Shown: positions 35,363 through 53,674 of the stretch, in pieces
Position numbering within the stretch: position 1 is the stretch's first letter
Layout: every line of letters begins with the position of its first letter
Assembly: GCF_001677475.2 (NCBI RefSeq)
Contig: NZ_CP015229.1
Origin: Escherichia coli
GTDB lineage: Bacteria; Pseudomonadota; Gammaproteobacteria; Enterobacterales; Enterobacteriaceae
DNA length: 64,000 bases
Reading direction: 5' to 3' (one strand)
The notes under the pieces: model-generated
What the model saw: the letters and a program-made list of their open reading frames with translations, nothing else
Told to the model about the DNA's origin: nothing
Databases searched by the model: none
Made by a program: the position numbers and the translations under genes

Positions 35363-35410
35363 TTTGCCTTCCAGATATGCGTAAAGCCCGGAAGGTCCGG
35401 GCTGGGGATT

Positions 35411-35488
35411 TGCCGGATGCGGCGTACACGCCTTATCCGGCCTACGATAGACACTTTGTAGGCCGGATACGCGCAGCGCATCCGGCAA
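35411..35488. repeat. REP element pair between btsT and yjiX
   Basis: gccggatgcggcgtacacgccttatccggcctac ... gtaggccggatacgcgcagcgcatccggca. Confidence 0.75.
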
Positions 35489-35492
35489 CCGG

Positions 35493-37643
35493 TTAGTGGT
35501 GCGAAGAGATCTTCACGCCGCCTTCCGGGATTGGAACGTACGGCGTTTCTTTGTCAGTACGTTTGTCGCTGTTACGCACCTTCAGCCAGGTTTTGAAACC
35601 GTAGAAGATGATGCTGTACACCACAATCAGGAACAGAATACTCAGGCCTGCGTTGGTGTAGTTGTTCACAACGATGTGGTTCATGTTGGCAATCTGCTGC
35701 GCCGTCAGGTCAGTACCGTTAGCAATCTTCTCTTTGTACTGGCTTGCCATGTAGAAGAAGCCTTCCATCTGCGGGTTGGTGCTGAACAGTTTCAGACCCA
35801 GCGCCCAGGTGGTGCAGATAAGCAGCCATACCGCCGGAACAACAGTTACCCAGATGTATTGGGTGCGCTTCATCTTAATCAGCACAACGGTGCCCAGAAC
35901 CAGCGCTACGGCTGCCAGCATCTGGTTGGAGATACCGAACAGCGGCCACAGGCTCTTAACGCCGCCCAGCGGATCGACCACGCCCTGATACAGCAGGTAG
36001 CCCCACAGACCCACACAGCCCGCTGTACCGATGATACCGGCAACCAGAGAGTCGGTTTTTTTCAGGAACGGGATGAAGTTACCCAGCAGGTCTTGCAGCA
36101 TAAAGCGGCCAGAACGGGTACCGGCATCCAGCGCGGTCAGGATGAACAGGGCTTCGAACAGGATACCGAAGTGATACCAGAAGCCCATGTCAGCCATCGG
36201 CAGCACTTTGTGGAATACATGAGCGATACCTACCGCCAGCGTCGGCGCACCACCTGCACGGTTCAGGACAGAAGGCTCACCAATGTCTTTCGCGGTTTGC
36301 AGGATCTGCTCTGGCGAAATCACGAAGCCCCAGGAGCTGACAGTCGCCGCCGCGTGTGCGGTAACGTCTTTCAGCTGCGCCATGATGATTGGCGCGTTCT
36401 CGCCACCCATTTCATGCAGGTTAGGCATGGTGATGCCGAGGCCAGCAGGCGGGGTGTTCATCGCGAAGTAAAGACCCGGTTCGATGATGGACGCAGCAAC
36501 CAGCGCCATAATCGCCACGAAGGACTCCATCAGCATTGCGCCGTAGCCGATGAAACGCGCATCGGTTTCGTTAGCCAGCAGTTTCGGCGTCGTACCGGAA
36601 GAGATCAGCGCGTGGAAGCCAGATACCGCACCACAGGCGATGGTGATGAACAGGAACGGGAACAGAGCGCCTTTCCACAGCGGGCCAGTACCATCAATGT
36701 ACTGAGTCATCGCAGGCATTTTCAGTTCCGGGTTCAGCACCACGATACCCAGCGCCAGGCCGACGATAACGCCGATTTTCAGGAAGGTTGCCAGATAGTC
36801 GCGCGGTGCGAGGATCAGCCACACCGGCAGCAGTGCGGAAACAAACGCATAGCCAATCAGCGCGAAGGTAATGGTGGTGTCTTTAAAGGTCAGTGCCGGA
36901 CCCCAGTACGGATCGTGAGCAATCACGCCACCGAAGTAGATAGAGGCAACCAGCAGCACGATACCAATGACAGAGACTTCACCTACACGCCCCGGACGAA
37001 TAAAGCGCATGTAGATACCCATAAACAGCGCAATCGGTACGGTTGAGCAAACGGTGAAGACACCCCACGGACTTTCGGCCAGGGCTTTAACCACAATCAG
37101 CGCCAGGACGGCAAGGATGATGATCATGATTAAGAAACAGCCAAACAGCGCGATAGTCCCCGGTACTGGTCCCATCTCTTCTTTGATCATCTCACCGAGA
37201 GATGCGCCGTTACGGCGAGAGGAGATAAACAGCACCATAAAGTCCTGTACCGCACCGGCCAGCACTACCCCCGCCAGCAGCCACAGCGTGCCAGGCAGGT
37301 AGCCCATCTGCGCGGCGAGCACCGGACCAACCAGCGGACCGGCACCGGCGATAGCGGCGAAGTGGTGACCAAACAACACGTAACGGTTGGTCGGAACGTA
37401 GTTCAGACCGTCGTTGTTAATAACCGCAGGCGTCGCGCGCGTGGGGTCGAGTTTCATCACCTTCTGGGCGATGTACAGACTGTAGTAGCGATACGCCACC
37501 AGATACACCGACACAGAGGCGACCACGATCCACAGGGCGCTGACGTGCTCCCCCCGACGTAATGCAACTACCGCGAGGCAGAATGCACCGATGATTCCGA
37601 GAATCACCCAGGGTATGTGCTTGAATAGTTTTTTCGTATCCAT
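35493..37643 (-). CDS. btsT: Pyruvate/H+ symporter BtsT (CstA family)
   Basis: Translation from ATG 37643, [43 protein letters not shown]...; large CstA-type polytopic transporter. Confidence 0.9.
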
Positions 37644-37922
37644 AGTAAAACCTGGCATTTTACTCGTCGTCTTTTGGCTTACAGGTGCGACAGCTGCATT
37701 TGTTCACCTCTGTCACTTACTGTTGTAAGCTCCCGGGGATTCACTCACTTGCTGCCTTCCTGCAAACCAAAATCCATTGAGTAATTTGTTAATCATAGGC
37801 CGAAGCCGTTCTAGGTTTGCGTTGCGTTTGAGGAGGTAAATTGACCGCTATCCTGCAGTGATGTTGCCAGAGTTACGCGCGCGTAAAGTAAGGTAAATAA
37901 CTGAGTGGTTATTTTAGGGACG

Positions 37923-37950
37923 TAAGCGGTCAGGAATGGCGGTGAGCGGT
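37923..37950 (-). promoter_or_regulatory. BtsR (YehT/LytTR) direct-repeat operator in the btsT promoter
   Basis: On the btsT strand: ACCGCTCA-N12-ACCGCTTA, two perfect matches to the ACC(G/A)CT(C/T)A repeat reported for YehT binding; about 280 nt upstream of the btsT ATG. Confidence 0.6.
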
Positions 37951-38002
37951 TGGGCAAGAATTATTCATCGGGTGGATATGTGATTGAGATCACAATAAAA
38001 AT

Positions 38003-38030
38003 GCCCCTTCGACGAATACGTGAAGGGGCT
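38003..38030 (-). terminator. Intrinsic terminator after hpaC
   Basis: gccccttc-loop-gaaggggc hairpin, followed on the minus strand by ATTTTTATT. Confidence 0.7.
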
Positions 38031-38035
38031 GGAGC

Positions 38036-38548
38036 TTAAATCGCAGCTTCCATTTCCAGCATCACCGGATGGAAACGGCGTTTAAAGTAGATAAGTCCGT
38101 GACCTTCTGCACTGAGGATGATGTTTTTAATCTCCACCAGATACACCAGATGTGTGCCAATTGCCTGCACATCGCGGATCTCACCTTCAAGACTGGCCAG
38201 CGAACCTTTCAGCACCGGCTGCGCCAGCGGACCTTTTTGCCAGCATGAGAGGCTAAAACGCTCTTCCATCGCCATGCCTGTCATGCCCGCGAAGTGGCGT
38301 GCCATCAGTTCCTGCTCATGGTTGAGGACGTTGACGCACAACTTGCCGTTGCCCTGAAAAACCGGGTTCATCGCACTGTTGGCGTTAATGCACACCATCA
38401 GCGACGGTGGTGTATCCGTGACCGAGCAGACAGCCGTTGCCGTAATCCCGCATTGTCCGGCGTCGCCCTCGGTGGTGATAATATTTACCGCTGCCGACAG
38501 GCTGGCCATCGCGTCACGAAAGCGCAGGCGTTGTTCATCTAATTGCAT
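38036..38548 (-). CDS. hpaC: 4-hydroxyphenylacetate 3-monooxygenase, flavin reductase component
   Basis: 170-aa product MQLDEQRLRFRDAMASLSAAVNIITTEG... from ATG 38548 with GGAGG SD. Confidence 0.9.
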   Translation of the reverse strand: MQLDEQRLRFRDAMASLSAAVNIITTEGDAGQCGITATAVCSVTDTPPSLMVCINANSAMNPVFQGNGKLCVNVLNHEQELMARHFAGMTGMAMEERFSLSCWQKGPLAQPVLKGSLASLEGEIRDVQAIGTHLVYLVEIKNIILSAEGHGLIYFKRRFHPVMLEMEAAI

Positions 38549-38565
38549 CTTAACCTCCTGCTGCA

Positions 38566-40128
38566 TTATTTCAGCAGCTTATCCAGCATGTTGATATCGT
38601 CGTTGTTGTGCAGGTGCGGCACAGTCCAGCCGTTCTGGTCGTATTCCGACAGGCAGCGATCAACCATCGCCATCATCTTGTCCATATTGCCGGAGCTTTG
38701 TGCCTGGCGCAGACATTGCAGGCGAATCTCATCCTGGCTACCGGAGTAGTTGATTTCATACAGTTCGTGACGACCACCAAATTCGCTGCCAATGGCATCC
38801 CACATCAGTTTGAGGATCTTGATGCGCTGGACGTGATCCATACCATTCGAACCGCGCACATACTTCGCCAGATACTGGTCGATCTGCGGATTGTTCAGGT
38901 CACGGGCACTGGAAGGGAGATAGATCAGGCCACTGGTAACGTTGCGTTCGATAATGTTTTTGATCTTCGCGTAGGCCATTGGTGCCAGTACGCGATAGGT
39001 TTGCAGTGCGGCATGATCCGGTAAATAAGCCCCGTTGACCCACGGCGTCGCTTCAGAACACATCGAGTCACTCAATGCCCAGAAGGTGTTGCGCCACGCC
39101 ACCACTTCACCGAGATCGGCCTGCACACCACGGAACTCCAGGGTGCCGGTACATTCGAGTGATTTTTTCAGCAGTGCCGTAATGAAGTCTAATTTCACTG
39201 CCAGGCGCACACAGGCTTGCAGCGGATACATACGGGCAAAACCACCTTCCATTGTCCAGCGACGGCAGCGATCGAAATCGCGGTAGATCAGTACGTTTTC
39301 CCATGGGATCAGCACGTTATCCATCACCAGAATCGCATCGTTCTCATCAAAGCGGCTGGAGAGCGGGTAGTCGTACGGCGAGCCGGTAGCACCCGCGACC
39401 ATCTCATAAGAGGCGCGGGAGATTAATTTCACGCCATCGGCATCCATTGGCGCAACGAACATCAGTGCGAAGTCCGGGTTTTCGCCCATCACTTGTGCCG
39501 AGCCGAAGCCAATCATGTTGTAGTGAGTCAGCGCCGAGTTGGTGGCAACCACTTTCGCACCGCTGACGATAATCCCGGCGTCAGTCTCTTTTTCCAGCTT
39601 GATGTAAACGTCTTTCACTTTATCGGTCGGCAAATGACGATCGATCGGTGGGTTAACAATCGCGTGGTTAAAGTAGAGGCCAGTTTCCTGAATACGGGTG
39701 TACCAGTTACGGGCGTTCTGCTCGAACTGACCGTAAAAGCCCGGATTCGCGCCCAGTGCGCAACCGAAAGCAGCTTTGTAGTCTGGGGTACGGCCCATCC
39801 AGCCATAGCTCAGGCGTGACCACTCAGCGATGGCGTCGCGTTGCTGGCGCAGGTCGTCGGCACTTTTCGCCACGCGGAAGAATTTATGGGTATAGCCGCC
39901 GCTGCCGGTGTCGGTGTTCCAACACAGAGAGTCCTGCATCTCCGGTTTGTGTAGCGCGTCGTACAGTTGGGCAACAGACGCTGCCGCATTACGAAATGCC
40001 GGATGAGTGGTGACGTCTTTCACTCGCTCGCCGTAGATATAGATCTCGCGACCATCCTGCAGGCTTTTCAGATACTCTTCCCCGGTGAACGGACGTTGGG
40101 TACTGGCGCGGAAATCTTCTGGTTTCAT
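38566..40128 (-). CDS. hpaB: 4-hydroxyphenylacetate 3-monooxygenase, oxygenase component
   Basis: 520-aa ORF recognised as HpaB (MKPEDFRASTQRPFTGEEYLKSLQDGREIYIYGERVKDVTTHPAFRNAA...). Confidence 0.9.
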   Translation of the reverse strand: MKPEDFRASTQRPFTGEEYLKSLQDGREIYIYGERVKDVTTHPAFRNAAASVAQLYDALHKPEMQDSLCWNTDTGSGGYTHKFFRVAKSADDLRQQRDAIAEWSRLSYGWMGRTPDYKAAFGCALGANPGFYGQFEQNARNWYTRIQETGLYFNHAIVNPPIDRHLPTDKVKDVYIKLEKETDAGIIVSGAKVVATNSALTHYNMIGFGSAQVMGENPDFALMFVAPMDADGVKLISRASYEMVAGATGSPYDYPLSSRFDENDAILVMDNVLIPWENVLIYRDFDRCRRWTMEGGFARMYPLQACVRLAVKLDFITALLKKSLECTGTLEFRGVQADLGEVVAWRNTFWALSDSMCSEATPWVNGAYLPDHAALQTYRVLAPMAYAKIKNIIERNVTSGLIYLPSSARDLNNPQIDQYLAKYVRGSNGMDHVQRIKILKLMWDAIGSEFGGRHELYEINYSGSQDEIRLQCLRQAQSSGNMDKMMAMVDRCLSEYDQNGWTVPHLHNNDDINMLDKLLK

Positions 40129-40378
40129 GTCGACCTCTACAGTATTAATCGGAATACGATTGTTAATTTTGTGTGTTGTTTTTGTTATTCAATTGAAGCT
40201 TGCAGAGGCGATTACGGGAAGACACTTTTGGGACAATGGCTGGTACTTTTCAGGTCGGGTACGGTTTTGTGATCGAGGTCGCTTTTAGCAATTTTTGACG
40301 TTACTAAATCCCCTTGCTCCAGGCGGAGAAAGGGGAATAGCAGGTGGTGCCTGGTTTCCCGTTAAGGCTAAGGGATTT

Positions 40379-41269
40379 TCACGTCACAGGTACTTTTTTG
40401 GCACGATAAGCACTGGGCGAGCAACCGACTAAGCGATTAAAAAAGCGGGCAAAATAAGCCGGATCTTTAAAACCGAGTTGCCAGGCAATATTGTTCACGG
40501 CGTTATCAGAAAACAGCAGCAGCCGCTTGGCTTCTCGCAGCTGCCTGTCGAAAATCAACCGTTTTGGCGGACGGTTGGCAAAGCGGCGGCAGATGTCGGT
40601 GAGGCGTGATTCGGTGATATGCAGTTCGTTAGCGTAATCCGGTACTGTCCAGTGCTGATGAAAATGGCTTTCAATCAGCATATTAAAACGCTGGAACAGT
40701 TTTAATTCTCCGCGCATTCCGCTGGCGGCATGGTCGTCGAGTTTTGCGTTACGCAGCAGTAGGGTGAACACTGCCTGTGCCAGTAACGTCAGGGTGTGTT
40801 CCCGTCCAGGCAGTTGTTCCACCGATTCCCGCTCTATCAGTTGCCAATAGTGTTCCAGCGCCGCCAGTTCGTCGGGTTTATCTGCCAGTGACAGGCAAAT
40901 CCCCGGGAGGCCGAAGGTTTCCCGAGTGCCCGGATAAAGAACTTCCAGCAGGGGCCAGATCAGATCTTCCCGTACCGTCAATACATGACCGTCGGCGTCA
41001 GACTCCGTAATAAACGCATGAGGTACTGACGGCGGCGTCAGGACAAACAGGGGCGCTTCCACCGAGTAACGATGATCGTCAAGCTGTAGCTCAATCTGTC
41101 CGCTATTGAGGAAATGCATCTGAAAGTACTGTTCGTGGCGATGTGGCAGCATATGGCGGCCAAAAAATGCCGCCATGCGGGCGAACGACTGATAATGCAC
41201 ATCGTCCGTGCCCAGGCTTTCATCGTACTCTTTGCTGATATCAATATTGGCAATCTGAGGGTCACACAT
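40379..41269 (-). CDS. hpaA: AraC-family activator of hpaBC
   Basis: 296-aa ORF, C-terminal AraC HTH; position between hpaX and hpaB. Confidence 0.85.
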   Translation of the reverse strand: MCDPQIANIDISKEYDESLGTDDVHYQSFARMAAFFGRHMLPHRHEQYFQMHFLNSGQIELQLDDHRYSVEAPLFVLTPPSVPHAFITESDADGHVLTVREDLIWPLLEVLYPGTRETFGLPGICLSLADKPDELAALEHYWQLIERESVEQLPGREHTLTLLAQAVFTLLLRNAKLDDHAASGMRGELKLFQRFNMLIESHFHQHWTVPDYANELHITESRLTDICRRFANRPPKRLIFDRQLREAKRLLLFSDNAVNNIAWQLGFKDPAYFARFFNRLVGCSPSAYRAKKVPVT

Positions 41270-41278
41270 CGTCGTTCC

Positions 41279-42655
41279 TTACGGGGTCGCTCGCGGACGG
41301 GAGGACTGCATTGGAATCGCCCAGATAATCCCCGCACCAATCACCAGCAGCGCGGCAACAAACCACAATCCACTGTTAAAGCTGCCGGTCAGATCTTTCA
41401 ACCAGCCGATCATAAACGGACTTAACGCTGAACCAATGTTGCCAGTGGCGTTGATCACCGCAATACCGATCGCTCGTGCCCGCAGGCTGATGGATTGATC
41501 CGGTGTTGTCCAGAAAATCGCCATTGCGCTGAATGATCCGGTCGAAGCCATAATGATCCCCAGCATCTGGATCATGTTGTGATCAGTTGCCGAAGCCAGT
41601 AACCAACCAGCGGCAGCGAACAAATAAGGAAGGGCGGTGTGATGCCTTCGTTCCTGGCGGCGATCTGAGTGACGGCTCCAGTAGATCATCCCGAGAATGG
41701 TACAAATCTGCGGTACGGCGGCCAGCAGGCCGATGGTGATATTACTGCTGCCCTGATTAAAACTTTGCAGGATCTGCGGTGTCCAGATGCTGATCGCACT
41801 AAGTGTGTTGGTCAGGCAGAAATACGCCAGGGTATACATCATCACCACCGGAGTGAAGATCTCCCGCCACATACTGCGTTGTTGCATGGCGTGGTGGCTG
41901 ATGGCTCCCTCTGGCTGAACCAGCTTCAGACGATCGTTATCCATCATCTCTTGCAGGCATTTTTTGTCTTCTTTCGTCAGCCACTTAGCTTTGTCCGGTG
42001 AGTCATCAAGCCAGAACCACACCATGACGCCGAGTAATACCGACGGGAAGCCTTCCAGCAAAAACAGCCACTGCCAGCCTTTTAATGCCATTACACCATC
42101 CAGCGACAAAATGTAGCCGGAAACGATCGAGCCCAACGCTGTCGTTACCGGCATTGCTACCATAAACAAGGCGTTGGCACGGGCGCGGAAGTAGGCCGGA
42201 AACCAGAAGGTTAAATAGAGCAGAATGCCAGGCAGAAAGCCGGCTTCGGTAATGCCAACCAGTATACGCAGTACGTATAAGCTGGTGGGGCCAGTGGCAA
42301 ACATGGTAGCAGTAGAGGCGATGCCCCAAAGCACCATGATGGTGGCGATCCAGCGCCGCGCACCGACAATACTCAGCATAATGTTGCTGGGAATGCCGAA
42401 GATGACATAAGCGGCATAGAACAGGGTGGTAGCTAGGCCAAACATGGTGGCGCTCAGACCGAGATCGCGTCCCATCGTTAGTCCGGCAAAGCCGATGTTG
42501 ATGCGATCAAGGAACGAGAAGATAAACAGCACGAACAGAAAGACGATCAGGCGGCGAAATAGCTTCTTAATAACCGCCTGTTGTCCGGCAGTCAGCGCTT
42601 TATGCTGATTCGCCGGATCGATACTCTCCGGTATGGCAGGTGAGGTGTCGCTCAT
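41279..42655 (-). CDS. hpaX: 4-hydroxyphenylacetate permease (MFS)
   Basis: Translation from ATG 42655, MSDTSPAIPESIDPANQHKALTAGQQAVIKK...; 12-TM MFS. Confidence 0.85.
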   Translation of the reverse strand: MSDTSPAIPESIDPANQHKALTAGQQAVIKKLFRRLIVFLFVLFIFSFLDRINIGFAGLTMGRDLGLSATMFGLATTLFYAAYVIFGIPSNIMLSIVGARRWIATIMVLWGIASTATMFATGPTSLYVLRILVGITEAGFLPGILLYLTFWFPAYFRARANALFMVAMPVTTALGSIVSGYILSLDGVMALKGWQWLFLLEGFPSVLLGVMVWFWLDDSPDKAKWLTKEDKKCLQEMMDNDRLKLVQPEGAISHHAMQQRSMWREIFTPVVMMYTLAYFCLTNTLSAISIWTPQILQSFNQGSSNITIGLLAAVPQICTILGMIYWSRHSDRRQERRHHTALPYLFAAAGWLLASATDHNMIQMLGIIMASTGSFSAMAIFWTTPDQSISLRARAIGIAVINATGNIGSALSPFMIGWLKDLTGSFNSGLWFVAALLVIGAGIIWAIPMQSSRPRATP

Positions 42656-42699
42656 TTTTCTTCCTCTAATGGGATTTTTGTAGGGTACGACAAGGTTTA

Positions 42700-42829
<130 letters not shown>

Positions 42830-43618
42830 TTAATACACGCCGGGCTTCACGGCGGTGGCCTGCGCACCAAACCGTGCTGCCAGCGCTTCGGCGGCGCGGG
42901 CGAGCAGGGTGGTGTCAACGCCGACGGCGACAAACAGCGCGCCCAGTTCCAGATAGCGTTTTGCCAGTTGCTCATTGGCGATCAGGATCCCCGGTGCTTT
43001 GCCCGCTTCGCGGATCTGCACGATCGCCTGCTCAATAGCGGCCTGTACTTCCGGGTGCTGCGGATTACCGGCATAACCCATATCGGCGCTCAGATCCGCC
43101 GGGCCGATAAACACGCCGTCTACTCCTTCCACGTCCAGAATCTGCGGTAAGTTCTTCATTGCCTCACGCGTTTCGATCTGCACCAGCACGCACATTTGAT
43201 CGTTGGCTTTTTGTAGGTAATCAGGAATACGATTCCAGCGCGAGGCGCGGGCCAGCGCACTGCCCACACCGCGAATACCGGCGGGGGGATAACGGGTGGC
43301 GCGTACCGCTTCACGGGCTTCGTCGGCGTTTTGTACCATCGGCACCAGTAAGGTTTGTGTGCCGACGTCCAGCAGTTGTTTGATTTGCACCGGATCGTTC
43401 CACGACGGACGCACTACCGGCTGGCTGGGGTAGGGCGCAATCGCCTGTAGCTGGGTGAGCACGGTTTGCACGTTATTCGGCGCGTGCTCACCGTCGATCA
43501 ACAACCAGTCGAATCCTGCTCCGGCCAGTAACTCTGCGCTGTAGCTGCTACTCAGCCCCAGCCATAATCCGATCTGCGGGCGGCCTGCTTTCAGCGCCGC
43601 TTTAAAACTGTTTTCCAT
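42830..43618 (-). CDS. hpaI: 2,4-dihydroxyhept-2-ene-1,7-dioate aldolase
   Basis: Translation from ATG 43618, [48 protein letters not shown]... Confidence 0.9.
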
Positions 43619-43628
43619 CGTTCTCTCC

Positions 43629-44432
43629 TTAAACAAAGCGGCAGCTAATGGAACCCATGTTGCCGTAATCGACGTGGAAGGTGTCCCCCTTACGCGCCGG
43701 AACCGGGCGGGTGAACGAACCGCCGAGAATGATTTGCCCGGCTTCCAGTTGCACGTCATACGGTGCGAGTTTGTTCGCCAGCCAGGCCACGCCGTTTGCC
43801 GGATGATTCAGCACACCAGCGGCGACGCCGGTTTCTTCAATCACGCCATTGCGATACATCAGGGCGGAGATCCAACGTAGATCCAACTCATCGGGCTTAA
43901 TGGGACGACCTCCGAGAATCACCCCGGCATTGGCGGCGTTATCGGAAATGGTGTCGAATACTTTGCGCGGGCGCTGGGTTTCCGGATCGATGTTGTGGCA
44001 GCGAGCGTCGATCAGCTCCAGCGCCGGGATCACGTAGTCCGTGGCGTTGTAAACGTCGAACAGCGTGCAGTTTGGCCCACGCAGCGGTTTTGCCAGCACA
44101 AAAGCCAGCTCCACTTCAATGCGCGGCACGATGAAGCGATCGGTCGGGATATCGCTGCCATCGTGGAAGAACATGTCATCCAGCAGGGCACCGTAATCCG
44201 GTTCGCTGATTTGTGAGCTGGCCTGCATCGCTTTCGAGGTCAGGCCGATTTTGTGGCCTTTCAGCGTGCGGCCTTCGGCAATTTTCAGGCGTACCCATTC
44301 GCGCTGTACGGCGTAGGCGTCTTCGATGGTGATCTCCGGGTAATCCAGCGAGATCGCGCGGATCTGTTCGCGCTGTTTTTCTGCCTGATCCAGACGCTGG
44401 GCGATCAGTGTGTAGGTGTGTTTGTCGAACAT
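43629..44432 (-). CDS. hpaH: 2-oxo-hept-4-ene-1,7-dioate hydratase
   Basis: Translation from ATG 44432, [43 protein letters not shown]... Confidence 0.9.
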
Positions 44433-44439
44433 AGCGATA

Positions 44440-44500
44440 TCCTGTGGCATTGCCGGATGGCGGCTGCGCCTTATCATCCGGCCTGGAAGCTGGTGCAAAT
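44440..44500. repeat. REP-like palindrome between hpaF and hpaH
   Basis: gccggatggcggctgcgccttatcatccggcc palindrome in the 68-nt gap. Confidence 0.5.
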
Positions 44501-44881
44501 TTATTTAAACAACGCGTGTACGTTGTTCTGTTTGAAATTCAACGTCGGGTGCAGCTCTGCAATCTCAAATGAAAGCGCCAGGTAACGGCTCTCCATCAGT
44601 GAGGCGAAGTGCGTTTTAATCAGATCAAACAGCATTTCGCCCACTTCCTGACGGCTTTCCAGACTGCGTCCGCTGCCGATTTTTAGTGTCATATGCACAA
44701 AGGCGTAATCGTGCTTGCCATCAGCCATTTGCCAGGTATCGATCCAGTGCGCCCGGCTACGTATTCCCCCAAGCGGAAAAATCCCCGTCGCCGCCAGTGC
44801 AGTGTTAACACTGGCAAACAGCTCAGGTAAGCGGGCTTCTTGACGAATATTTTCAGTACATTCCACGATAAAGTGCGGCAT
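44501..44881 (-). CDS. hpaF: 5-carboxymethyl-2-hydroxymuconate isomerase
   Basis: 126-aa [29 protein letters not shown]... (CHM isomerase). Confidence 0.9.
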
Positions 44882-44890
44882 GGTGGTTCC

Positions 44891-45742
44891 TTACGCGGGC
44901 AGCGGGAAAACAGCGTTAACCTGACCGGTGCCAGAGCTTGGGAACAGCTCGGTGATAAACTCCACCTTGCCGTCGTATTTATCCCAGCCGAGCATCCCCA
45001 GCAGCATCACCGTGTCGTGCATATTGCCTTCGCCGTAGCAGTAGTCGGCGTACTCCGGCAGCATATTGCAGAACTCTTTGAACTGGCCTTCGCGCCACAG
45101 CTTCACCACGCGCTCGTCCATCTGGCGGTCGAACTCGCGGGTGTAGCTGTTCATCCCTTCTTCTGCACGCTGATCGTCAATAAAGCGGTGCGATAACGAA
45201 CCGCTGGCAAGGACCGCCACGGTACCGTCGTACTGTTCGATCGCTTTCAGAATCGCTTCGCCCAGCTTGCGGCTGTCGGCAAAATCGTGAACCGTGCAGA
45301 AAGCCGAAATGGAAACCACTTTGAAGTGCTTGTCTTCATTCATGTAGCGCATTGGCACCAGCGTGCCGTATTCCAGTTTCAGGCTGGGAATGTTGTGCGC
45401 TTTCGCCCGCACGCCGAGCTTTAAGGCTTCATCGGCAATTAGCTGCCCCAACTCCGGGTTGCCCTCGTAGTTGTAGGTCATGTCACGAATAAAATGCGGC
45501 AGCTCGTTACTGGTGTAGACGCCTTCAAAATGGTCTGCACAGTTGATGTGATAAGCACTGTTGACCAGCCAGTGGGTATCGAAAACGATAATGGTATCGA
45601 CGCCCATTTCCCGGCAACGCTTGCTGATCTCTTTATGCCCGTCGATCGCGCCCTGGCGGCAACCGTGGTTTTTCCCTGGCAGTTCAGAGAGATACATCGA
45701 CGGTACGTGCGTGATCTTGGCGGCTAACGCTAACTTACCCAT
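44891..45742 (-). CDS. hpaD: 3,4-dihydroxyphenylacetate (homoprotocatechuate) 2,3-dioxygenase
   Basis: 283-aa ORF recognised as HpaD (extradiol dioxygenase). Confidence 0.9.
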   Translation of the reverse strand: MGKLALAAKITHVPSMYLSELPGKNHGCRQGAIDGHKEISKRCREMGVDTIIVFDTHWLVNSAYHINCADHFEGVYTSNELPHFIRDMTYNYEGNPELGQLIADEALKLGVRAKAHNIPSLKLEYGTLVPMRYMNEDKHFKVVSISAFCTVHDFADSRKLGEAILKAIEQYDGTVAVLASGSLSHRFIDDQRAEEGMNSYTREFDRQMDERVVKLWREGQFKEFCNMLPEYADYCYGEGNMHDTVMLLGMLGWDKYDGKVEFITELFPSSGTGQVNAVFPLPA

Positions 45743-45743
45743 A

Positions 45744-47210
45744 TCAGACTCCCCATTTCGGAATTGGATGGTCGCCCATGGAAATGCAGACGTTCTTCAT
45801 TTCCGCGAACACTTCGAAGCTGTACTCACCGCCTTCACGCCCGGTGCCGGAGGCTTTTACGCCGCCAAACGGCTGGCGCAGGTCGCGCACGTTCTGGGTG
45901 TTGACGAACACCATGCCTGCTTCAATGCCACGCGCCAGGCGTAACACTTTGCTGACATCCTGTGTCCAGATGTACGACGCGAGGCCGTACTCCACGTCGT
46001 TTGCCAGGCGCAGACCTGCGGCTTCGTCTTTAAACGGCAGCAGGCAGGCGACCGGCCCGAAAATCTCTTCCTGGGCGACGCGCATACGGTTATCAACGTC
46101 TGCCAGCACCGTTGGGCGCAGGAAGTTACCGCCTTTCAGGTGCGCAGGCAGGTCGGACGGTTTATCCGGACCGCCCGCCAGCAGGGTTGCGCCTTCTTCA
46201 ATGCCGAGACGGATATAGCCGGAGACTTTTTCCCAGTGTTGCTGGCTGATAAGCGCCCCAACCTGGGTATTCGGATCGTTCGGATCGCCCACGCGCAGAC
46301 GGTTGGCGCGTTCGGCAAAGCGTTTAACGAATTCTGGATAGATGCTCTGTTGAATAAAGATGCGCGAACCGGCGGTGCAGCGTTCGCCGTTGATTGAGAA
46401 GATGGTGAACAGGGCGGCGTCCAGCGCGCGCTCAATATCGGCATCTTCAAAAATCAGCACCGGCGATTTTCCGCCCAGTTCCATGGAGTATTTTTTCAGC
46501 CCGGCGTTTTTCATGATGTTGCGCCCGGTGGCGGTACCGCCGGTGAACGACACGGCACGCACGTCATGATGACGGACCAGCGCATCGCCTGCGGTTGCGC
46601 CGTAGCCCTGTACCACGTTCAGCACGCCCGCCGGAATACCGGCTTCCAGCGCCAGCTCACCCAGGCGGTCAGCGGTCAGCGGGGAGAGTTCTGACATTTT
46701 CAGTACCGCGGTATTGCCCAGCGCCAGACACGGCGCGACTTTCCAGGTGGCGGTCATAAACGGCACGTTCCACGGCGACACCAGTGCACAAACGCCTACC
46801 GGCTGCACCAGCGTGTAGTTGAGCATCTTGTCGTCGACCGGATAAGTCTTGCCGTTCATCTGCTGGCAGACTTCCGCGAAAAATTCAAAGTTGTGGGAAG
46901 CGCGTGGGATCAACACATTTTTGGTCTGATGGATTGGCAGGCCCGTGTCAGCGGTTTCCATCGCGGCGATCTCAGGCACGTTCTGGTCGATCAGATCGCC
47001 CAGACGGCGCATCAGGCGCGCACGCTCTTTCATCGGCAGATTGGCCCATTTCGGGAACGCCTCTTTCGCTGCCGCTACCGCCTGATTGATCTCCGCTTCA
47101 CCGCCGGAGGCCACATCCGCCAGCACCTCACCGGTTGCTGGATTGGTGGTCTGGAAATAGTCGTTACCTGCAACATTTTTGCCGTTGATCCAATGATTTA
47201 CTTTTTTCAT
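45744..47210 (-). CDS. hpaE: 5-carboxymethyl-2-hydroxymuconate semialdehyde dehydrogenase
   Basis: 488-aa aldehyde dehydrogenase; ATG overlaps the hpaG stop (ATGA). Confidence 0.9.
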   Translation of the reverse strand: MKKVNHWINGKNVAGNDYFQTTNPATGEVLADVASGGEAEINQAVAAAKEAFPKWANLPMKERARLMRRLGDLIDQNVPEIAAMETADTGLPIHQTKNVLIPRASHNFEFFAEVCQQMNGKTYPVDDKMLNYTLVQPVGVCALVSPWNVPFMTATWKVAPCLALGNTAVLKMSELSPLTADRLGELALEAGIPAGVLNVVQGYGATAGDALVRHHDVRAVSFTGGTATGRNIMKNAGLKKYSMELGGKSPVLIFEDADIERALDAALFTIFSINGERCTAGSRIFIQQSIYPEFVKRFAERANRLRVGDPNDPNTQVGALISQQHWEKVSGYIRLGIEEGATLLAGGPDKPSDLPAHLKGGNFLRPTVLADVDNRMRVAQEEIFGPVACLLPFKDEAAGLRLANDVEYGLASYIWTQDVSKVLRLARGIEAGMVFVNTQNVRDLRQPFGGVKASGTGREGGEYSFEVFAEMKNVCISMGDHPIPKWGV

Positions 47211-48496
47211 TTCGCTGTATCCTCACTCACAATTCGGTTCACCAGGTGGCCCACGCCTTCTACTTCCACCACTACTTCATCGCCAGGCACCACGTCAGAT
47301 AAGCCTTTTGGTGTGCCGGTGGCGATCATGTCGCCCGGATTCAGGGTCATAAATTCGCTTAAGTAGGCGATCAGGAAGGGCACGCTGAAGATCAGATCGG
47401 CGGTGGTGCCTTGCTGGCGTAACTCGCCGTTGACGAAGGTGCGAAGGGTCAGATTATGCGGGTCCGGGATCGCCTCTTTCGGCACGATGGTTGAAAGCAT
47501 CGGCGTCAGTCCGTCGCGGCTTTTTACCCGCAGGTTAGGGCGGTAGTAGTTTTCCAGATAGTCGCGAATGGCGTAGTCGTTACACACGGTGTAGCCCGCG
47601 ACATAATCCATGGCATCGGCTTCACTGACGTTACGCGCCTGCTTGCCAATAACTACCACCAGCTCCGCTTCGTAGTGCATGTATTCAATCTTGTTCGGGC
47701 GCACGGAGGTCTGGTTATCGCCAGTGAGGGTATTCGACGCTTTCAGGAACACCAGCGGCTCTTCCGGTGGCTTAAATTCCAGTTCGCTGGCGTGGTCGGC
47801 GTAGTTCAGGCCGAGGGCAAACAGCGTACCGTGCGGGTGTGGCAGCGTTGGGAAGCTCTTGCGCGTGGTCACTTCACGTTCGTCCACTACCGGATTTTCC
47901 AGCGGCGGGAAACCTTCTGCGAGAACACGAACGCGATCGCCTGGCTGTATTTCCACGCGCGCCTGTGGCGTGCCGAGCAGAATGGCATCGCCTGGATTCA
48001 GCGTGGCAAATTCGCTCAGGGCGCTCAGCAGCTGTGCGGCGTTACGTTGTAAATCGGCGGTGTTCCAGTGATCGGCAGGACGCCCGTTGATCTCGGTATA
48101 GATGGTCAGATTATCGACATTGCTGAGAGCCACGGTTTCGCCAATGGGGCAGAATCCATCACGACATTTTGCTTTGATTGCCGGGCGGTAAAAGCTCTCT
48201 TCCGGCAGGCTGACGTCGTTAGCCAGCGCATATCCGGCGATGTACTCTGCCGCATCTTCTTCACGTACTTTCGTCGCCGTTTTCCCCACAATCAGCGCAA
48301 CAGTCGCACCGCTCAGTACCTTTTCACCCTGTGGAAAGGGAATCGGTTCACCGCAACCAATCACCGTATTGCGCGGTTTAATAAACCAGACCGCAGTTTT
48401 AGGCGGGGCTTTGTAGGGGGATTTCTGGAACGCTTCCTGCCATGCATCAAGTTGGCTGCGATGGTTCAACGCTACGGCGAAGATAGTGCCTTTCAT
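47207..48496 (-). CDS. hpaG: Bifunctional OPET decarboxylase / HHDD isomerase
   Basis: Translation from ATG 48496 with GAGGAG SD, MKGTIFAVALNHRSQLDAWQEAFQ...; two FAH-like halves. Confidence 0.9.
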   Translation of the reverse strand: MKGTIFAVALNHRSQLDAWQEAFQKSPYKAPPKTAVWFIKPRNTVIGCGEPIPFPQGEKVLSGATVALIVGKTATKVREEDAAEYIAGYALANDVSLPEESFYRPAIKAKCRDGFCPIGETVALSNVDNLTIYTEINGRPADHWNTADLQRNAAQLLSALSEFATLNPGDAILLGTPQARVEIQPGDRVRVLAEGFPPLENPVVDEREVTTRKSFPTLPHPHGTLFALGLNYADHASELEFKPPEEPLVFLKASNTLTGDNQTSVRPNKIEYMHYEAELVVVIGKQARNVSEADAMDYVAGYTVCNDYAIRDYLENYYRPNLRVKSRDGLTPMLSTIVPKEAIPDPHNLTLRTFVNGELRQQGTTADLIFSVPFLIAYLSEFMTLNPGDMIATGTPKGLSDVVPGDEVVVEVEGVGHLVNRIVSEDTAK

Positions 48497-48767
48497 TACC
48501 ACTCCTCGGATTCGATCATCTTAATCATTAATATATTAATGATTACTTTTATTCCCGATTGCGTAGTTTGGCAAAAGTAAGTGATGTAAATGTGATCTAA
48601 TTAACAAACTATTTACATTTAAAGATAATAAAATATTAAATATCAGCAAGTTAACAAAACATGCTCAATTTTGATAAAATGAAGAATTGCAGGGGCAGCG
48701 CAGTCCCGGTAACGTGATGATTAACTGTTTCTATATTAATGATTTTGAATTTTTCAGGGGAAAGATA

Positions 48768-49214
48768 ATGCACGACTCTCTAACCATTGCGTTGCTCCAG
48801 GCGCGAGAAGCGGCGATGAGTTATTTTCGCCCAATCGTTAAACGGCATAATTTGACTGAGCAACAGTGGCGCATCGTGCGTATTCTGGCGGAAAGCCCAT
48901 CAATGGATTTTCACGATCTGGCGTATCGCGCCTGCATTTTGCGCCCAAGCCTGACCGGGATCCTCACGCGGATGGAACGCGACGGTTTAGTGTTGCGATT
49001 AAAGCCGATCAATGATCAGCGGAAGCTCTATATCTCGCTGACCAAAGAGGGGCAGGCGCTGTATAACCGCGCTCAGACACAGATTGAAGAAGCCTATCGG
49101 CAGATTGAAGCTCAGTTTACTGCTGAGAAAATGCAACAGTTAACCCATCTGTTAGAGGAATTTATTGCTCTGGGTAATTCCCGACAAGAAGACATCCCGG
49201 GCGATAATGAATAA
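48768..49214 (+). CDS. hpaR: MarR-family repressor of the hpa meta-cleavage operon
   Basis: Translation from ATG 48768, MHDSLTIALLQAREAAMSYFRPIVKRHNLTEQQWRIVRILAE...; divergent from hpaG. Confidence 0.85.
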   Translation: MHDSLTIALLQAREAAMSYFRPIVKRHNLTEQQWRIVRILAESPSMDFHDLAYRACILRPSLTGILTRMERDGLVLRLKPINDQRKLYISLTKEGQALYNRAQTQIEEAYRQIEAQFTAEKMQQLTHLLEEFIALGNSRQEDIPGDNE

Positions 49215-49275
49215 CTTTTTAGTATCTGATAACCAGCGTCTGGTTTTTCCATGGATGGCGGGTTACACCTTTTCA

Positions 49276-49302
49276 TAAAGTTTTTGCTTTCCAGGCCGAA
49301 AA
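49276..49302 (+). promoter_or_regulatory. Sigma-28 (FliA) class-3 flagellar promoter for tsr
   Basis: TAAA-N15-GCCGAAAA, against the TAAA-N15-GCCGATAA consensus with one mismatch; about 30 nt upstream of the tsr ATG. Confidence 0.65.
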
Positions 49303-49332
49303 TCTTGCATCGGTCCACAGGAAAGAGAAACC

Positions 49333-50997
49333 ATGTTAAAACGTATCAAAATTGTGACCAGCTTACTGCTGGTTTTGGCCGTTTTTGGCCTTTTACAACT
49401 GACATCAGGCGGTCTGTTCTTTAATGCCTTAAAGAATGACAAAGAAAATTTCACTGTTTTACAAACCATTCGCCAGCAGCAATCCACGCTGAATGGCAGC
49501 TGGGTCGCGTTGTTGCAGACGCGTAACACCCTCAACCGCGCGGGTATCCGCTACATGATGGATCAGAATAATATTGGTAGCGGTTCAACCGTTGCTGAGC
49601 TGATGCAGAGTGCCAGTACTTCGCTGAAACAGGCGGAAAAAAACTGGGCGGATTACGAAGCGTTGCCGCGTGACCCGCGTCAGAGCACCGCCGCAGCGGC
49701 AGAGATCAAACGTAATTACGATATTTATCACAATGCGCTGGCGGAGCTGATCCAACTATTAGGTGCAGGCAAAATCAACGAGTTCTTTGATCAGCCGACT
49801 CAGGGATATCAGGACGGTTTCGAGAAGCAGTATGTGGCTTACATGGAGCAAAACGATCGGCTCTATGATATTGCCGTCAGCGATAACAATGCCTCCTACA
49901 GCCAGGCGATGTGGATTCTGGTGGGCGTGATGGTCGTCGTACTGGCGGTCATCTTCGCCGTCTGGTTCGGTATTAAAGCCTCGTTGGTAGCGCCAATGAA
50001 TCGCCTGATTGACAGCATTCGTCATATTGCAGGCGGCGATCTGGTGAAACCGATTGAGGTGGATGGCTCTAATGAGATGGGGCAACTGGCAGAGAGTTTG
50101 CGCCATATGCAGGGAGAGCTGATGCGTACCGTCGGTGATGTGCGCAACGGGGCCAATGCCATCTATAGCGGTGCCAGCGAAATAGCTACCGGCAATAACG
50201 ATCTCTCTTCGCGCACCGAGCAACAGGCCGCTTCGCTGGAAGAGACGGCAGCCAGCATGGAGCAACTGACCGCAACGGTGAAGCAGAACGCCGAAAATGC
50301 GCGCCAGGCCAGCCACCTGGCGTTAAGTGCTTCCGAAACGGCGCAACGCGGTGGCAAAGTGGTGGATAACGTGGTGCAGACTATGCGCGATATCTCCACC
50401 AGTTCGCAGAAAATCGCCGATATTATCAGCGTAATTGACGGCATTGCCTTCCAGACCAATATTCTGGCTTTGAACGCGGCGGTTGAGGCTGCGCGTGCTG
50501 GTGAGCAAGGACGCGGTTTTGCGGTGGTCGCGGGAGAAGTGCGTAATTTAGCCCAGCGTAGCGCTCAGGCGGCTCGTGAAATTAAAAGCCTGATTGAAGA
50601 CTCGGTGGGGAAAGTAGATGTTGGCTCTACGCTGGTCGAAAGCGCTGGGGAAACAATGGCGGAGATTGTCAGCGCCGTGACCCGCGTGACGGACATTATG
50701 GGCGAAATTGCTTCTGCTTCTGATGAGCAGAGCCGTGGTATCGATCAGGTTGGCTTAGCGGTTGCTGAGATGGACCGGGTAACTCAACAGAACGCCGCGC
50801 TGGTGGAAGAATCTGCCGCCGCCGCCGCCGCGCTGGAAGAGCAGGCCAGTCGCCTGACCGAAGCAGTGGCAGTGTTCCGGATTCAGCAACAGCAGCAACA
50901 GCATCGTGAAACATCGGCTGTGGTAAAAACCGTGACGCCAGCTACGCCGCGTAAAATGGCCGTGGCAGATAGCGAGGAGAACTGGGAAACATTTTAA
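49333..50997 (+). CDS. tsr: Methyl-accepting chemotaxis protein I (serine chemoreceptor)
   Basis: 554-aa ORF recognised as Tsr; HAMP and signalling domains, C-terminal NWETF pentapeptide. Confidence 0.95.
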
Positions 50998-51010
50998 TCG
51001 TCATAAAAAT

Positions 51011-51036
51011 GCCCGATAAGCAAAATGTTATCGGGC
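51011..51036. terminator. Hairpin terminator in the convergent tsr/lgoT gap
   Basis: gcccgataa-loop-ttatcgggc; on the minus strand it is followed by ATTTTTAT. Confidence 0.65.
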
Positions 51037-51045
51037 ATAGGGAGA

Positions 51046-52407
51046 TTAATCTTTCCGTGGGTCGTTGATCGGCTGACGAACCAGGAAGATGTACGCCAGT
51101 GCCCCCGCTGCGGTGACGCAACCGCAGATGATTAGTGCCAGACGGAATGAGTGGGTGGTATCAACAATAAAACCAGTAATGATCGGCGCGAAAGAGGCGC
51201 AGATGAAGCTGGCAAAGTTCTGGATACTGCCCACCGACGCAGTCATGCGAGAAGCAACTGCGACGTGGATCAATCCCCAGCAGGATGTTCCTGCAAAGTG
51301 AATACAGAACAGTGCCATACCAATCAGCAGAACCGCTGTCATAGATGTTGTCGCTTGCGGTACGACCAGCGTAAAGGCGGCAGAACAGAACATCCCGGCA
51401 ATAATGCAGATCTTACGGCTTTTAATCGGAGCCATTCCCCCTTTGACCAGCCAGTCAGTAACGTAACCGTTGACCAGCATCCCGGCAGCCCCAAACAGGA
51501 AAGGGATAGCCGCCATCAACCCTGTGCTTTTTAAATCCAGGTTATAGGCTGTTTGCAGGTAACCAGGAAGCCAGGCCAGGTACAGCCACGCAGTGTAGTT
51601 GATGCCACTGAATCCGAGCATCATTCCCCACATTGTGCGGTTACGGAACAGGCTGCGCCATTCGGCAAAACTGAGCGGATCTCGGCGGGCATTGACACTA
51701 CCAGCATTGAGGTAAGCTTGTTCAACGGCAGTCAGTTCTACGTGCTCGCGGTTGCGATAGAGCATATACCAGCCAATGGCGAGAAAAATCCCCAGCACAC
51801 CAATGGTAATAAACATCCCACGCCAGCCCATCACCAGCATCATCGCCGCCAGAATCGGTGGGCTTACGGCAACGCCAATGGTAGAAGCTGCGTTGAAGAA
51901 GCCCATCGGGCGTCCGCGCTCTTTGATGTTGAACCAGTCATTAATGACTTTTACACCACATGGGTTCATCGGCGCTTCACCAATTCCCATACCGATACGC
52001 ACCAACACGAACTGCGTAAAGCTGTGCACCATGCCAGACATTGCCTGGAACAGTGACCAGAAGAACATCCCAAGTCCCAGCATCAGGCGCGGGCCTTTAC
52101 GATCCAATAGTGGGCCGCAAGGAAGTTGCGCAATCCCGTAAGCGAGTGAAAACACGGAGAGCAAAGCGCCGATTTCGGTGGCACTTAATCCCAATTCTTC
52201 ACGAATCGTTAAATTTGCTACCGACAGCGAACTGCGGTCGAGATAATTGATTACCGCCGCAAAAAATAATAACAACATGGCGGTGGTTTGAATGCGTTTA
52301 ATTCGGGTACTGCGTTGAACTAATCCATCTGGTGGCACGGGAATATCTGCCGACGAAGATGGAGTAAATGAAGAACGCGGATCGAGGGTGATATTTTCTT
52401 TTTCCAC
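51046..52407 (-). CDS. lgoT: L-galactonate:H+ symporter (MFS)
   Basis: 453-aa ORF recognised as LgoT (YjiZ); start codon is GTG. Confidence 0.85.
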   Translation of the reverse strand: MEKENITLDPRSSFTPSSSADIPVPPDGLVQRSTRIKRIQTTAMLLLFFAAVINYLDRSSLSVANLTIREELGLSATEIGALLSVFSLAYGIAQLPCGPLLDRKGPRLMLGLGMFFWSLFQAMSGMVHSFTQFVLVRIGMGIGEAPMNPCGVKVINDWFNIKERGRPMGFFNAASTIGVAVSPPILAAMMLVMGWRGMFITIGVLGIFLAIGWYMLYRNREHVELTAVEQAYLNAGSVNARRDPLSFAEWRSLFRNRTMWGMMLGFSGINYTAWLYLAWLPGYLQTAYNLDLKSTGLMAAIPFLFGAAGMLVNGYVTDWLVKGGMAPIKSRKICIIAGMFCSAAFTLVVPQATTSMTAVLLIGMALFCIHFAGTSCWGLIHVAVASRMTASVGSIQNFASFICASFAPIITGFIVDTTHSFRLALIICGCVTAAGALAYIFLVRQPINDPRKD

Positions 52408-53536: not shown

Positions 53537-53674
53537 ATTTTCCTCCTTGTGAGTCCATTAAAACCCGATTTAAAACATTTTTATGCGTGTGTTTTCACAA
53601 AACAGATTTTCCGTTCCGCTGCCATTTTTCATTTTCATTGATATCTAAGGCAACAAAAAATGGAGAGCCGAATC

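Follow-up and report, generated by a model that had tools for sequence, protein, structure and literature searches.

Work of the 1980s and 1990s made known the hpa cluster for catabolism of 4-hydroxyphenylacetate (4-HPA), its enzymes and regulators, and its absence from Escherichia coli K-12. The cluster enables many strains of the species to use 4-HPA for growth, and HpaBC has found wide use as a biocatalyst. In the window analysed here, a 64,000-nt stretch of the chromosome of an E. coli strain, we found such a cluster. It is an already known system, described by Prieto, Diaz and Garcia in 1996 for E. coli W, as cited in PMC7180172 and PMC7201708. Growth on 4-HPA is documented for both W and B strains (PMC7201708, PMC7180172). 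The W cluster, hpaRGEDFHIXABC (ATCC 9637/11105; GenBank Z37980), has the same eleven genes as the window, in the same order and orientation and with the same btsT and tsr flanks.

Gene content of the hpa locus

The hpa block occupies window positions 38036-49214 and comprises eleven intact genes located between btsT (yjiY) and tsr on the chromosome, of which ten, hpaC, B, A, X, I, H, F, D, E and G, lie on the minus strand, and hpaR is divergently oriented on the plus strand. Gene identities were assigned by NCBIfam equivalog cut-offs, which all eleven hpa proteins passed (scores below are given against the cut-off of each profile).

35493-37643, minus strand: btsT (yjiY), pyruvate/H+ symporter, left flank (716 aa; annotated btsT in E. 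coli AR_0019, W and K-12)
38036-38548, minus strand: hpaC, NAD(P)H:flavin reductase component of 4-HPA 3-monooxygenase (NF012030, 385.6 bits vs 315; protein identical to that of W)
38566-40128, minus strand: hpaB, oxygenase component (TIGR02310, 1109.6 bits vs 885.2; protein identical to that of W)
40379-41269, minus strand: hpaA, AraC/XylS-type activator of hpaBC (TIGR02297, 390.3 bits vs 274.65; one aa from W)
41279-42655, minus strand: hpaX, MFS 4-HPA permease (TIGR02332, 892.4 bits vs 615.4)
42830-43618, minus strand: hpaI, 4-hydroxy-2-oxoheptanedioate aldolase (TIGR02311, 433.8 bits vs 368.8)
43629-44432, minus strand: hpaH, 2-oxo-hept-4-ene-1,7-dioate hydratase (TIGR02312, 465.2 bits vs 351.5)
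44501-44881, minus strand: hpaF, 5-carboxymethyl-2-hydroxymuconate isomerase, 'B-type' allele (NF011605, 263.5 bits vs 215)
44891-45742, minus strand: hpaD, homoprotocatechuate 2,3-dioxygenase (TIGR02298, 549.9 bits vs 315.95; protein identical to that of W)
45744-47210, minus strand: hpaE, CHMS dehydrogenase (TIGR02299, 737.3 bits vs 638.35)
47207-48496, minus strand: hpaG, bifunctional OPET decarboxylase/HHDD isomerase (NF011750, 967.5 bits vs 811; 5 aa from W)
48768-49214, plus strand: hpaR, MarR-type repressor of the meta operon (TIGR02337, 201.1 bits vs 121.2; protein identical to that of W)
49333-50997, plus strand: tsr, serine chemoreceptor, right flank (NF011615, 1223.3 bits vs 947)

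These assignments bear out an earlier note on this DNA, which had read an eleven-gene hpaGEDFHI-X-A-BC cluster with a divergent hpaR in the btsT-tsr interval and had bounded it at 38003, where the hairpin of the hpaBC terminator has its base, and at 49214, the hpaR stop codon. Profile scores and identity to W identify HpaB, which also gave a full-length match to PDB 6qyh and 6eb0, and HpaC as the 4-HPA 3-monooxygenase pair. The homoprotocatechuate meta-cleavage operon is complete, its six genes standing in the order G-E-D-F-H-I and all scoring above the equivalog cut-offs. Regulators and permease are likewise present, namely HpaR, encoded divergently from hpaG, HpaA, and HpaX, whose gene lies upstream of hpaA on the same strand with 9 nt between them.

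Leaving hpaF aside, the other ten genes share 96.5-99.2% nucleotide identity with those of W and their products 98.8-100%; HpaB, HpaC, HpaD and HpaR are identical, and the others lie 1-5 residues apart. The nucleotide differences are mostly synonymous, as expected under purifying selection; hpaB, for instance, accumulates 21 of them with no amino acid change. Comparison with the loci of W and of E. coli B REL606, in line with a check proposed in the earlier note, and with that of AR_0019 recovered the same layout, and neither internal stops nor frameshifts were found in the eleven hpa ORFs. A 17.5-kb alignment to E. coli AR_0019 revealed a sole indel, at 44459 in an intergenic REP, and the BtsT proteins of both strains are one amino acid apart. 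Residue 379 of HpaB in the window is Arg, as in BL21(DE3); this BL21-type residue permits use of 3-HPA besides 4-HPA, and REL606, which has Cys379, grows on 4-HPA only (PMC7201708).

Collectively, we judge that the window very probably carries a complete chromosomal E. coli hpa cluster, predicted to be functional, which is not a recent insertion and in place of which other lineages hold a replacement of the ~11.3-kb segment. Growth on 4-HPA and 3-HPA and 4-HPA-inducible expression are predicted from the identity of the proteins to those of W and B strains, with the use of both substrates anticipated because HpaB has Arg379. The pathway itself was worked out in E. coli W, C and B and is transferred to the window by near-identity. 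HpaX would bring in 4-HPA or 3-HPA, effector-bound HpaA would switch on hpaBC, and HpaB, supplied with reduced flavin by HpaC, would hydroxylate the substrate to 3,4-dihydroxyphenylacetate. Repression of hpaGEDFHI by HpaR would then be lifted, HpaD would open the ring, and HpaE, HpaF, HpaG, HpaH and HpaI would yield pyruvate and succinic semialdehyde.

That the cluster has instead decayed in this lineage into a non-functional pseudo-cluster heading for loss could be argued from the 1.2-1.7% by which the lineage departs in this region from all complete genomes, the five substitutions of HpaG with respect to W, and a base change in a candidate HpaR operator (described below). However, the absence of stops and frameshifts, a strong excess of synonymous changes, equivalog scores all well over the cut-offs, and the exact HpaG protein recurring unchanged in public assemblies (47 blocks of the assembly index) render decay hardly credible.

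Control regions and dispersed repeats

The following non-coding elements were mapped in and around the cluster.

37663-37788: ERIC/IRU-type dispersed repeat of 126 nt in the btsT leader (median of 8 places per E. coli genome)
37979-37994: perfect CRP consensus TGTGA-N6-TCACA (no other perfect match in the window; chance expectation 0.07)
38003-38029, minus strand: hpaBC intrinsic terminator, a hairpin (-20 kcal/mol, z = -3.9) with a trailing U-run, AUUUUUAUU
40129-40378, minus strand: hpaA-hpaB intergenic region, 250 bp (6 mismatches and 0 gaps vs W)
42702-42828: hpaX-hpaI BIME of three REPs, two on the plus and one on the minus strand (42702-42734, 42752-42785, 42800-42828)
44451-44484: degenerate REP between hpaH and hpaF (holds the sole indel vs AR_0019)
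48497-48767: hpaG/hpaR divergent control region with two candidate HpaR operators
49276-49302, plus strand: tsr sigma-28 promoter, TAAAGTTT-N11-GCCGAAAA (no other match in the window; chance expectation 0)

The hpaBC terminator, which the earlier note had already called strong on the btsT side, was missed by a simple terminator scan because its stem is bulged, and folding confirmed it. A second hairpin, at 49231-49248 downstream of hpaR, resembled a terminator on visual inspection, but its fold was no better than that of shuffled sequence (z = 0.09) and it was discarded. The internal REP/BIME elements reported in the same note were recovered by reading the sequence by eye and by blastn-short, as three REPs in hpaX-hpaI and a degenerate one in hpaH-hpaF; Rfam naRNA4, a REP-derived RNA, gave a sub-threshold match at 42745-42782, within the hpaX-hpaI BIME. 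This three-REP BIME has the same length in W, whereas the hpaX-hpaI spacer of REL606 measures 123 bp and holds two REPs, as compared with 174 bp in the window. Intergenic control regions align to those of W free of gaps except for the hpaH-hpaF spacer, which is 68 bp long in the window and 110 bp in W; REL606 (67 bp) shares the short form.

In E. coli W, the hpaA-hpaB intergenic region contains the HpaA-activated P_BC promoter; a TTAA-N4-TTAA motif has been described for HpaR sites (both PMC7180172). One candidate HpaR operator of the window is a perfect 24-bp palindrome at 48522-48545, with halves TAATCATTAATA and TATTAATGATTA, and a further copy of TATATTAATGATT lies at 48732-48744. W and the window are one base apart in the candidate operator, at position 48535, which is A in the window and G in W, REL606 and AR_0019.

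On the btsT side, the 126-nt ERIC belongs to the hpa+ haplotype. It is present in the btsT leader of both W and the window, copies of at least 90% identity occur in 2060 genomes vs 2067 that are hpa+, and the leader element is absent from K-12, Pseudocitrobacter and Klebsiella. The core of this repeat matches the ERIC1R/ERIC2 primer sequences. An Rfam V_AS5 match on the btsT leader (E = 0.19; 24.8 bits vs a threshold of 96) was rejected, the segment being the ERIC-type repeat. We also set aside the 161 bp between the ERIC and the cluster, 93% identical to K-12, as a trace of an old haplotype split, given that IHE3034, with an empty site, is 98% identical there.

History of the btsT-tsr site

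The stretch unlike K-12 extends from ~37998 to 49271, slightly past hpaR, and thus covers roughly 11.3 kb. The CRP site is the last element conserved in the K-12 alignment ahead of this variable segment, and K-12 homology restarts at 49272, 4 nt upstream of the tsr sigma-28 promoter. K-12 has a btsT-tsr gap of 377 bp, in agreement with the short interval given in the earlier note. E. coli shows at least three alleles at this site: the whole hpa locus, found in 2067 of 5426 complete genomes (38%); a K-12-type filler, in about half of them; and an O157-type 0.75-kb cassette encoding a 180-aa protein without assigned function, in 6.7%. In E. coli lacking the cluster, the segment bounded by the CRP site on the btsT side and the sigma-28 promoter of tsr would have been replaced by either the short filler or the cassette. 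Neither the window nor 82 fetched loci held a source for the ~130-bp K-12-specific filler, which indicates that the loss involved more than a clean deletion.

The earlier note had further described the cluster as a known strain-variable island, inserted at this site, and not a novel system. Known and variable it is, as the genome counts attest, but neither 'island' nor 'inserted' fits the synteny, divergence and composition of the locus. The block tsr-hpaR-hpaGEDFHIXABC-btsT-yjiX-yjiA recurs in Enterobacter cloacae, E. asburiae, E. sichuanensis, Lelliottia, Pseudocitrobacter and one Citrobacter, and the hpaC-btsT-yjiX-yjiA adjacency also in Klebsiella and Raoultella; synteny holds on both flanks at 8 loci with four non-Escherichia genus labels and on the btsT side at 19 loci. 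In Enterobacter, Lelliottia, Citrobacter and Klebsiella, nucleotide identity to the window is 71-88% for hpa genes and 78-88% for flanking genes. The hpa/hpc clusters of Enterobacter, Klebsiella, Pseudocitrobacter and Salmonella contain the same genes (71-96% nucleotide identity). Both flanks match those of the window in Enterobacter, Lelliottia and Pseudocitrobacter, the last with an additional ~3.4 kb between tsr and hpaR; Salmonella differs in having hpaBC on the opposite side of hpaR.

The occupied btsT-tsr state is most likely ancestral, and the 377-bp K-12 gap derived by later loss, because the block is syntenic in other genera and hpa divergence resembles that of the flanks. Loss in K-12 was proposed earlier in PMC7201708, which cites Diaz et al. 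2001 on this point. A horizontally acquired island that entered a short btsT-tsr intergenic region of an E. coli ancestor would account for the variable presence of hpa among E. coli and for the lack of hpaH in most Escherichia species representatives, and there is evidence of exchange of hpa segments between Escherichia and Pseudocitrobacter. Nevertheless, we regard such an acquisition as very unlikely, given that synteny is two-sided in Enterobacter, Lelliottia, Pseudocitrobacter and one Citrobacter and one-sided in Klebsiella and Raoultella, and that the hpa genes diverge much as the flanks do. Indeed, the usual signs of an island (mobility genes, tRNA or repeat borders, odd composition, a site empty in relatives) were not found: 37644-49332 contains no mobility ORFs; the cluster borders revealed neither an integrase or transposase nor a tRNA or flanking direct repeats; GC content, 0.51-0.59 within the cluster vs 0.53-0.58 in btsT, is similar to that of neighbouring genes; and K-12, in place of the empty target expected under insertion, contains ~130 bp of unrelated filler.

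Ancestral occupancy does not mean strictly vertical descent. In the scanned set of GTDB species representatives, hpaH is carried by a single Escherichia entry, which indicates that most Escherichia species representatives are devoid of the cluster; this scarcity could reflect repeated loss, or regain by homologous recombination via the conserved flanks. In a divergent Escherichia locus (L004), hpa genes are 93-96% identical to the window at the nucleotide level and tsr, lgoT and lgoR 83-88%, and in Pseudocitrobacter vendiensis hpaD and hpaE reach 96%, with btsT, yjiX and yjiA at 85-87%. The identity patterns of L004 and P. vendiensis point to parts of the cluster having moved between species and to a descent that was not purely vertical. 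Recent transfer of the whole cluster from Pseudocitrobacter, considered on account of a 99% identical HpaH protein, was rejected, since overall nucleotide identity is only 84-90%. Judged from these comparisons, transfer involving Pseudocitrobacter does appear to have affected a portion of the meta operon as well as the W-type hpaF.

Two hpaF alleles and their implications

Two hpaF alleles with about 80% nucleotide identity were distinguished; that of the window is the one found in E. coli B, as opposed to the W/C type. Its HpaF is identical in protein sequence to that of REL606 (99.7% nucleotide identity of the genes), a strain that grows on 4-HPA (PMC7201708). It differs from W HpaF at 20 of 126 residues and from PDB 1OTG at close to 20, and retains the N-terminal Pro. 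The W-type hpaF, on the other hand, is 93% identical to the Pseudocitrobacter allele. We lean towards regarding btsT-tsr as an old multi-allelic replacement site at which a ~450-bp patch of hpaF and spacer was probably swapped in about half of the hpa+ strains, W and C included.

The hpa locus offers little discovery value; its value is practical. Data on hpaF/HpcD obtained with W or C concern an allele that differs by ~16% in protein from the one held by about half of hpa+ E. coli, B strains and the window among them. If the swap is true, the characterised CHM isomerase (PDB 1OTG) would be an imported allele, not the native Escherichia one. The locus as a whole would be better described as an ancestral block that K-12-like lineages have lost than as an acquired island.

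Integrity of the hpa cluster and its likeness to the E. coli W system

Between 36000 and 51500, the window is colinear with annotated btsT-hpaC-hpaB-hpaA-hpaX-hpaI-hpaH-hpaF-hpaD-hpaE-hpaG / hpaR-tsr loci such as that of E. coli AR_0019, as revealed by ORF listing and megablast against 5,426 complete E. coli genomes. Mapping of annotated CDS showed that the eleven hpa genes, btsT, tsr and lgoT all run their full length between correct start and stop codons, uninterrupted by any internal stop; across 17.5 kb the single indel lies at 44459, inside an intergenic REP. Every Hpa protein also scored above the curated threshold of the corresponding NCBIfam equivalog model, which bears out the eleven-gene cluster with divergent hpaR that the earlier note had placed between btsT and tsr. 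The limits assigned to it there, 38003 and 49214, correspond respectively to the foot of the hairpin after hpaC, as evidenced by folding, and to the hpaR stop codon. The strong btsT-side terminator and the internal REP/BIME clusters were likewise recovered:

38003-38029, minus strand: hpaBC terminator hairpin after hpaC (-20 kcal/mol, z = -3.9), followed by a U-run
42702-42828: BIME of three REPs between hpaX and hpaI
between hpaH and hpaF: degenerate REP

The hpa intergenic REPs yielded sub-threshold matches to Rfam naRNA4, a REP-derived RNA. A further BIME, a pair of inverted REPs (35385-35487), lengthens the yjiX-btsT spacer to 127 nt, as against 46 nt in AR_0019. The btsT-tsr interval of K-12 is indeed short (377 bp as measured), and the earlier observation is thus confirmed in all particulars.

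E. coli W, in which the cluster was characterised according to PMC7180172 and PMC7201708 (citing Prieto et al. 1996; Galan et al. 2001, 2003), shares its layout and flanks with the window. In the alignment to W, which had been proposed as a check, HpaB, HpaC, HpaD and HpaR were identical, HpaA, X, I, H, E and G differed by 1-5 residues, and the ten genes other than hpaF showed 96.5-99.2% nucleotide identity, with mostly synonymous differences. Apart from the hpaH-hpaF spacer, the intergenic control regions aligned gap-free. The cluster is a correctly identified and already known system, not a novel one. Residue 379 of HpaB is Arg in the window, the BL21(DE3) state that allows growth on 3-HPA and 4-hydroxyphenylacetate (4-HPA); Cys379 in REL606 HpaB restricts growth to 4-HPA (PMC7201708).

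Because of this near-identity to the characterised system, HpaX would take up 4-HPA or 3-HPA, effector-bound HpaA would activate hpaBC, and HpaC would supply reduced flavin to HpaB, whose product would be homoprotocatechuate. The hpaGEDFHI genes would then be freed from HpaR repression, and HpaD, E, F, G, H and I would convert this product to pyruvate and succinic semialdehyde. The hpaG/hpaR divergent region contains a perfect 24-bp palindrome (48522-48545), whose right half-site (TATATTAATGATT) recurs at 48732-48744; both candidate HpaR operators carry TTAA-N4-TTAA, the motif described at HpaR sites (PMC7180172). At position 48535 the window has A, whereas W, REL606 and AR_0019 have G and their palindrome is one base short of perfect; this single substitution perfects the candidate operator adjoining hpaG in the window lineage.

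Borders and alleles of the btsT-tsr interval

On the btsT side, alignable homology with K-12 extends to a perfect CRP consensus site (TGTGATTGAGATCACA, 37979-37994), the sole such site in the window. It resumes at 49272, 4 nt ahead of the following element:

49276-49302: tsr sigma-28 promoter, TAAAGTTT-N11-GCCGAAAA, the sole such match in the window

The variable segment (37998-49271, ~11.3 kb) therefore occupies the exact space between the control elements of the neighbouring btsT and tsr. K-12 instead carries ~130 bp there that align poorly or not at all (positions 5464-5596 of the K-12 locus), and no homologue of this stretch was found in the window or among 82 fetched loci.

The whole hpa locus is present in 2,067 of the 5,426 complete genomes, which sustains the description of the cluster as strain-variable, while the K-12 junction is covered over at least 80% in 3,117. 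The latter count probably includes a third locus type, because strain 117, its example genome, covers 81% of the junction query; we infer ~2,750 genomes for the K-12 type proper. The third allele, found in 363 complete genomes, mostly O157:H7, is an AT-rich cassette of 0.75 kb that contains an ORF of 180 aa (1915-2690 in the strain 117 locus; likewise in O157:H7 genomes). This ORF gave no significant Pfam match and a weak TnsA-like N-terminal one (E = 0.068). Another ~240 genomes fall outside the hpa and K-12-junction counts.

Two stretches (36000-51500 and 52000-64000) were compared with the complete genomes, the best of which is only 98.3-98.8% identical to the window there. At 99.995% over 21.3 kb, the NCBI draft assembly GCA_031341795.3 is a near-perfect match, so the window represents a real lineage absent from complete genomes.

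A 126-nt ERIC/IRU-type repeat (37663-37788) lies in the btsT 5' leader, between promoter region and start codon; alignments showed this segment to be absent from K-12, Pseudocitrobacter and Klebsiella. Its core matches the ERIC1R and ERIC2 primer sequences, and the median E. coli genome contains 8 members of this dispersed family. Members at least 90% identical to it co-occur with the hpa+ haplotype (2,060 genomes, near the hpa+ count of 2,067).

Upstream of yjiA, 24336-33875 is a variable 'immigration control' region, where K-12 has hsdRMS, mcrBC and mrr, and W has penicillin G acylase. The window carries there:

24336-26429: GmrSD-type restriction enzyme
27038-28798, 28798-30303 and 30334-32766: hsdS, hsdM and hsdR of a type I R-M system, EcoEI type
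32874-33875: 333-aa ORF lacking any Pfam match, where GC is 32%

Also, a 1746-aa inverse autotransporter of intimin/invasin type (5796-11036) and a 657-aa pentapeptide-repeat protein (13602-15575) are absent from the corresponding part of W, and the intervening yjiJ-yjiK segment shares only 81% identity with W.

Interspecies exchange and hpaF alleles

With HpaH as query, we searched a single genome for each GTDB species, fetched 10-kb flanks and mapped every window protein onto the 80 resulting loci. Among non-coli Escherichia representatives, hpaH was found in only one, which bears the label E. coli SCPM-O-B-8794 and shares 90.9% identity with the window; its hpa genes reach 93-96%, as against 83-88% for tsr, lgoT and lgoR. 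Similarly, hpaD, hpaE, hpaH, hpaI and hpaG of Pseudocitrobacter vendiensis are 91-96% identical to the window at the nucleotide level, hpaD and hpaE attaining 96%, whereas btsT, yjiX and yjiA show 85-87% and tsr 78%. That hpa genes are closer than their flanks in both genomes shows that segments of the cluster have passed between species via homologous recombination at the conserved site, and the P. vendiensis values indicate a recombinational exchange between Escherichia and Pseudocitrobacter inside the cluster. Both Pseudocitrobacter species have an extra ~3.4 kb between tsr and hpaR (L003, P. vendiensis, 1664-5108; L005, the other species, 1918-5227).

Between the window and W, hpaF is only 80% identical at the nucleotide level, with 20 of 126 residues different. 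The divergent patch is sharply bounded (~44450-44900, hpaF and the hpaH-hpaF spacer) in a cluster otherwise 97-99% identical. Of the 2,071 complete genomes with hpaF, 1,084 have the window/B type and 987 the W/C type. A divergent Escherichia locus (L004) matches the window type at 96%, and the 93% identity of the W type to Pseudocitrobacter hpaF suggests that the W type is a gene-sized import. The CHM isomerase structure PDB 1OTG is that of the W-type product, and the catalytic N-terminal Pro is kept in the window HpaF. Both alleles are functional, because the window HpaF is identical to that of REL606, which grows on 4-HPA (PMC7201708).

Polarity of the hpa locus

The complete tsr-hpaR-hpaGEDFHIXABC-btsT-yjiX-yjiA order was found in Enterobacter cloacae, E. 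asburiae, E. sichuanensis, Enterobacter sp. RIT418, Lelliottia nimipressuralis, Citrobacter sp. 18056 and two Pseudocitrobacter species, and the hpaC-btsT-yjiX-yjiA adjacency in 19 of the 80 loci, Klebsiella and Raoultella included. Divergence from the window is alike for hpa genes (71-88% nucleotide identity) and flanking genes (78-88%) in Enterobacter, Lelliottia, Citrobacter and Klebsiella. At 0.51-0.59, GC within the cluster is in line with btsT, and ORF listing and repeat inspection of the window uncovered neither mobility genes nor border repeats at the cluster. Because of this conserved order, similar divergence, matching GC and lack of mobility genes and border repeats, the occupied btsT-tsr state appears to be ancestral and the K-12 state derived. 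This polarity is qualified by the single hpaH-carrying genome among non-coli Escherichia representatives, with hpa genes closer to the window than its flanks, and by the high identity of P. vendiensis hpaD and hpaE. PMC7201708, citing Diaz et al. 2001, had already suggested loss of the cluster in K-12. The earlier reading of an inserted island is not supported by these features, and the cluster is better described as an ancestral block that K-12-like and O157-like lineages have lost or replaced.
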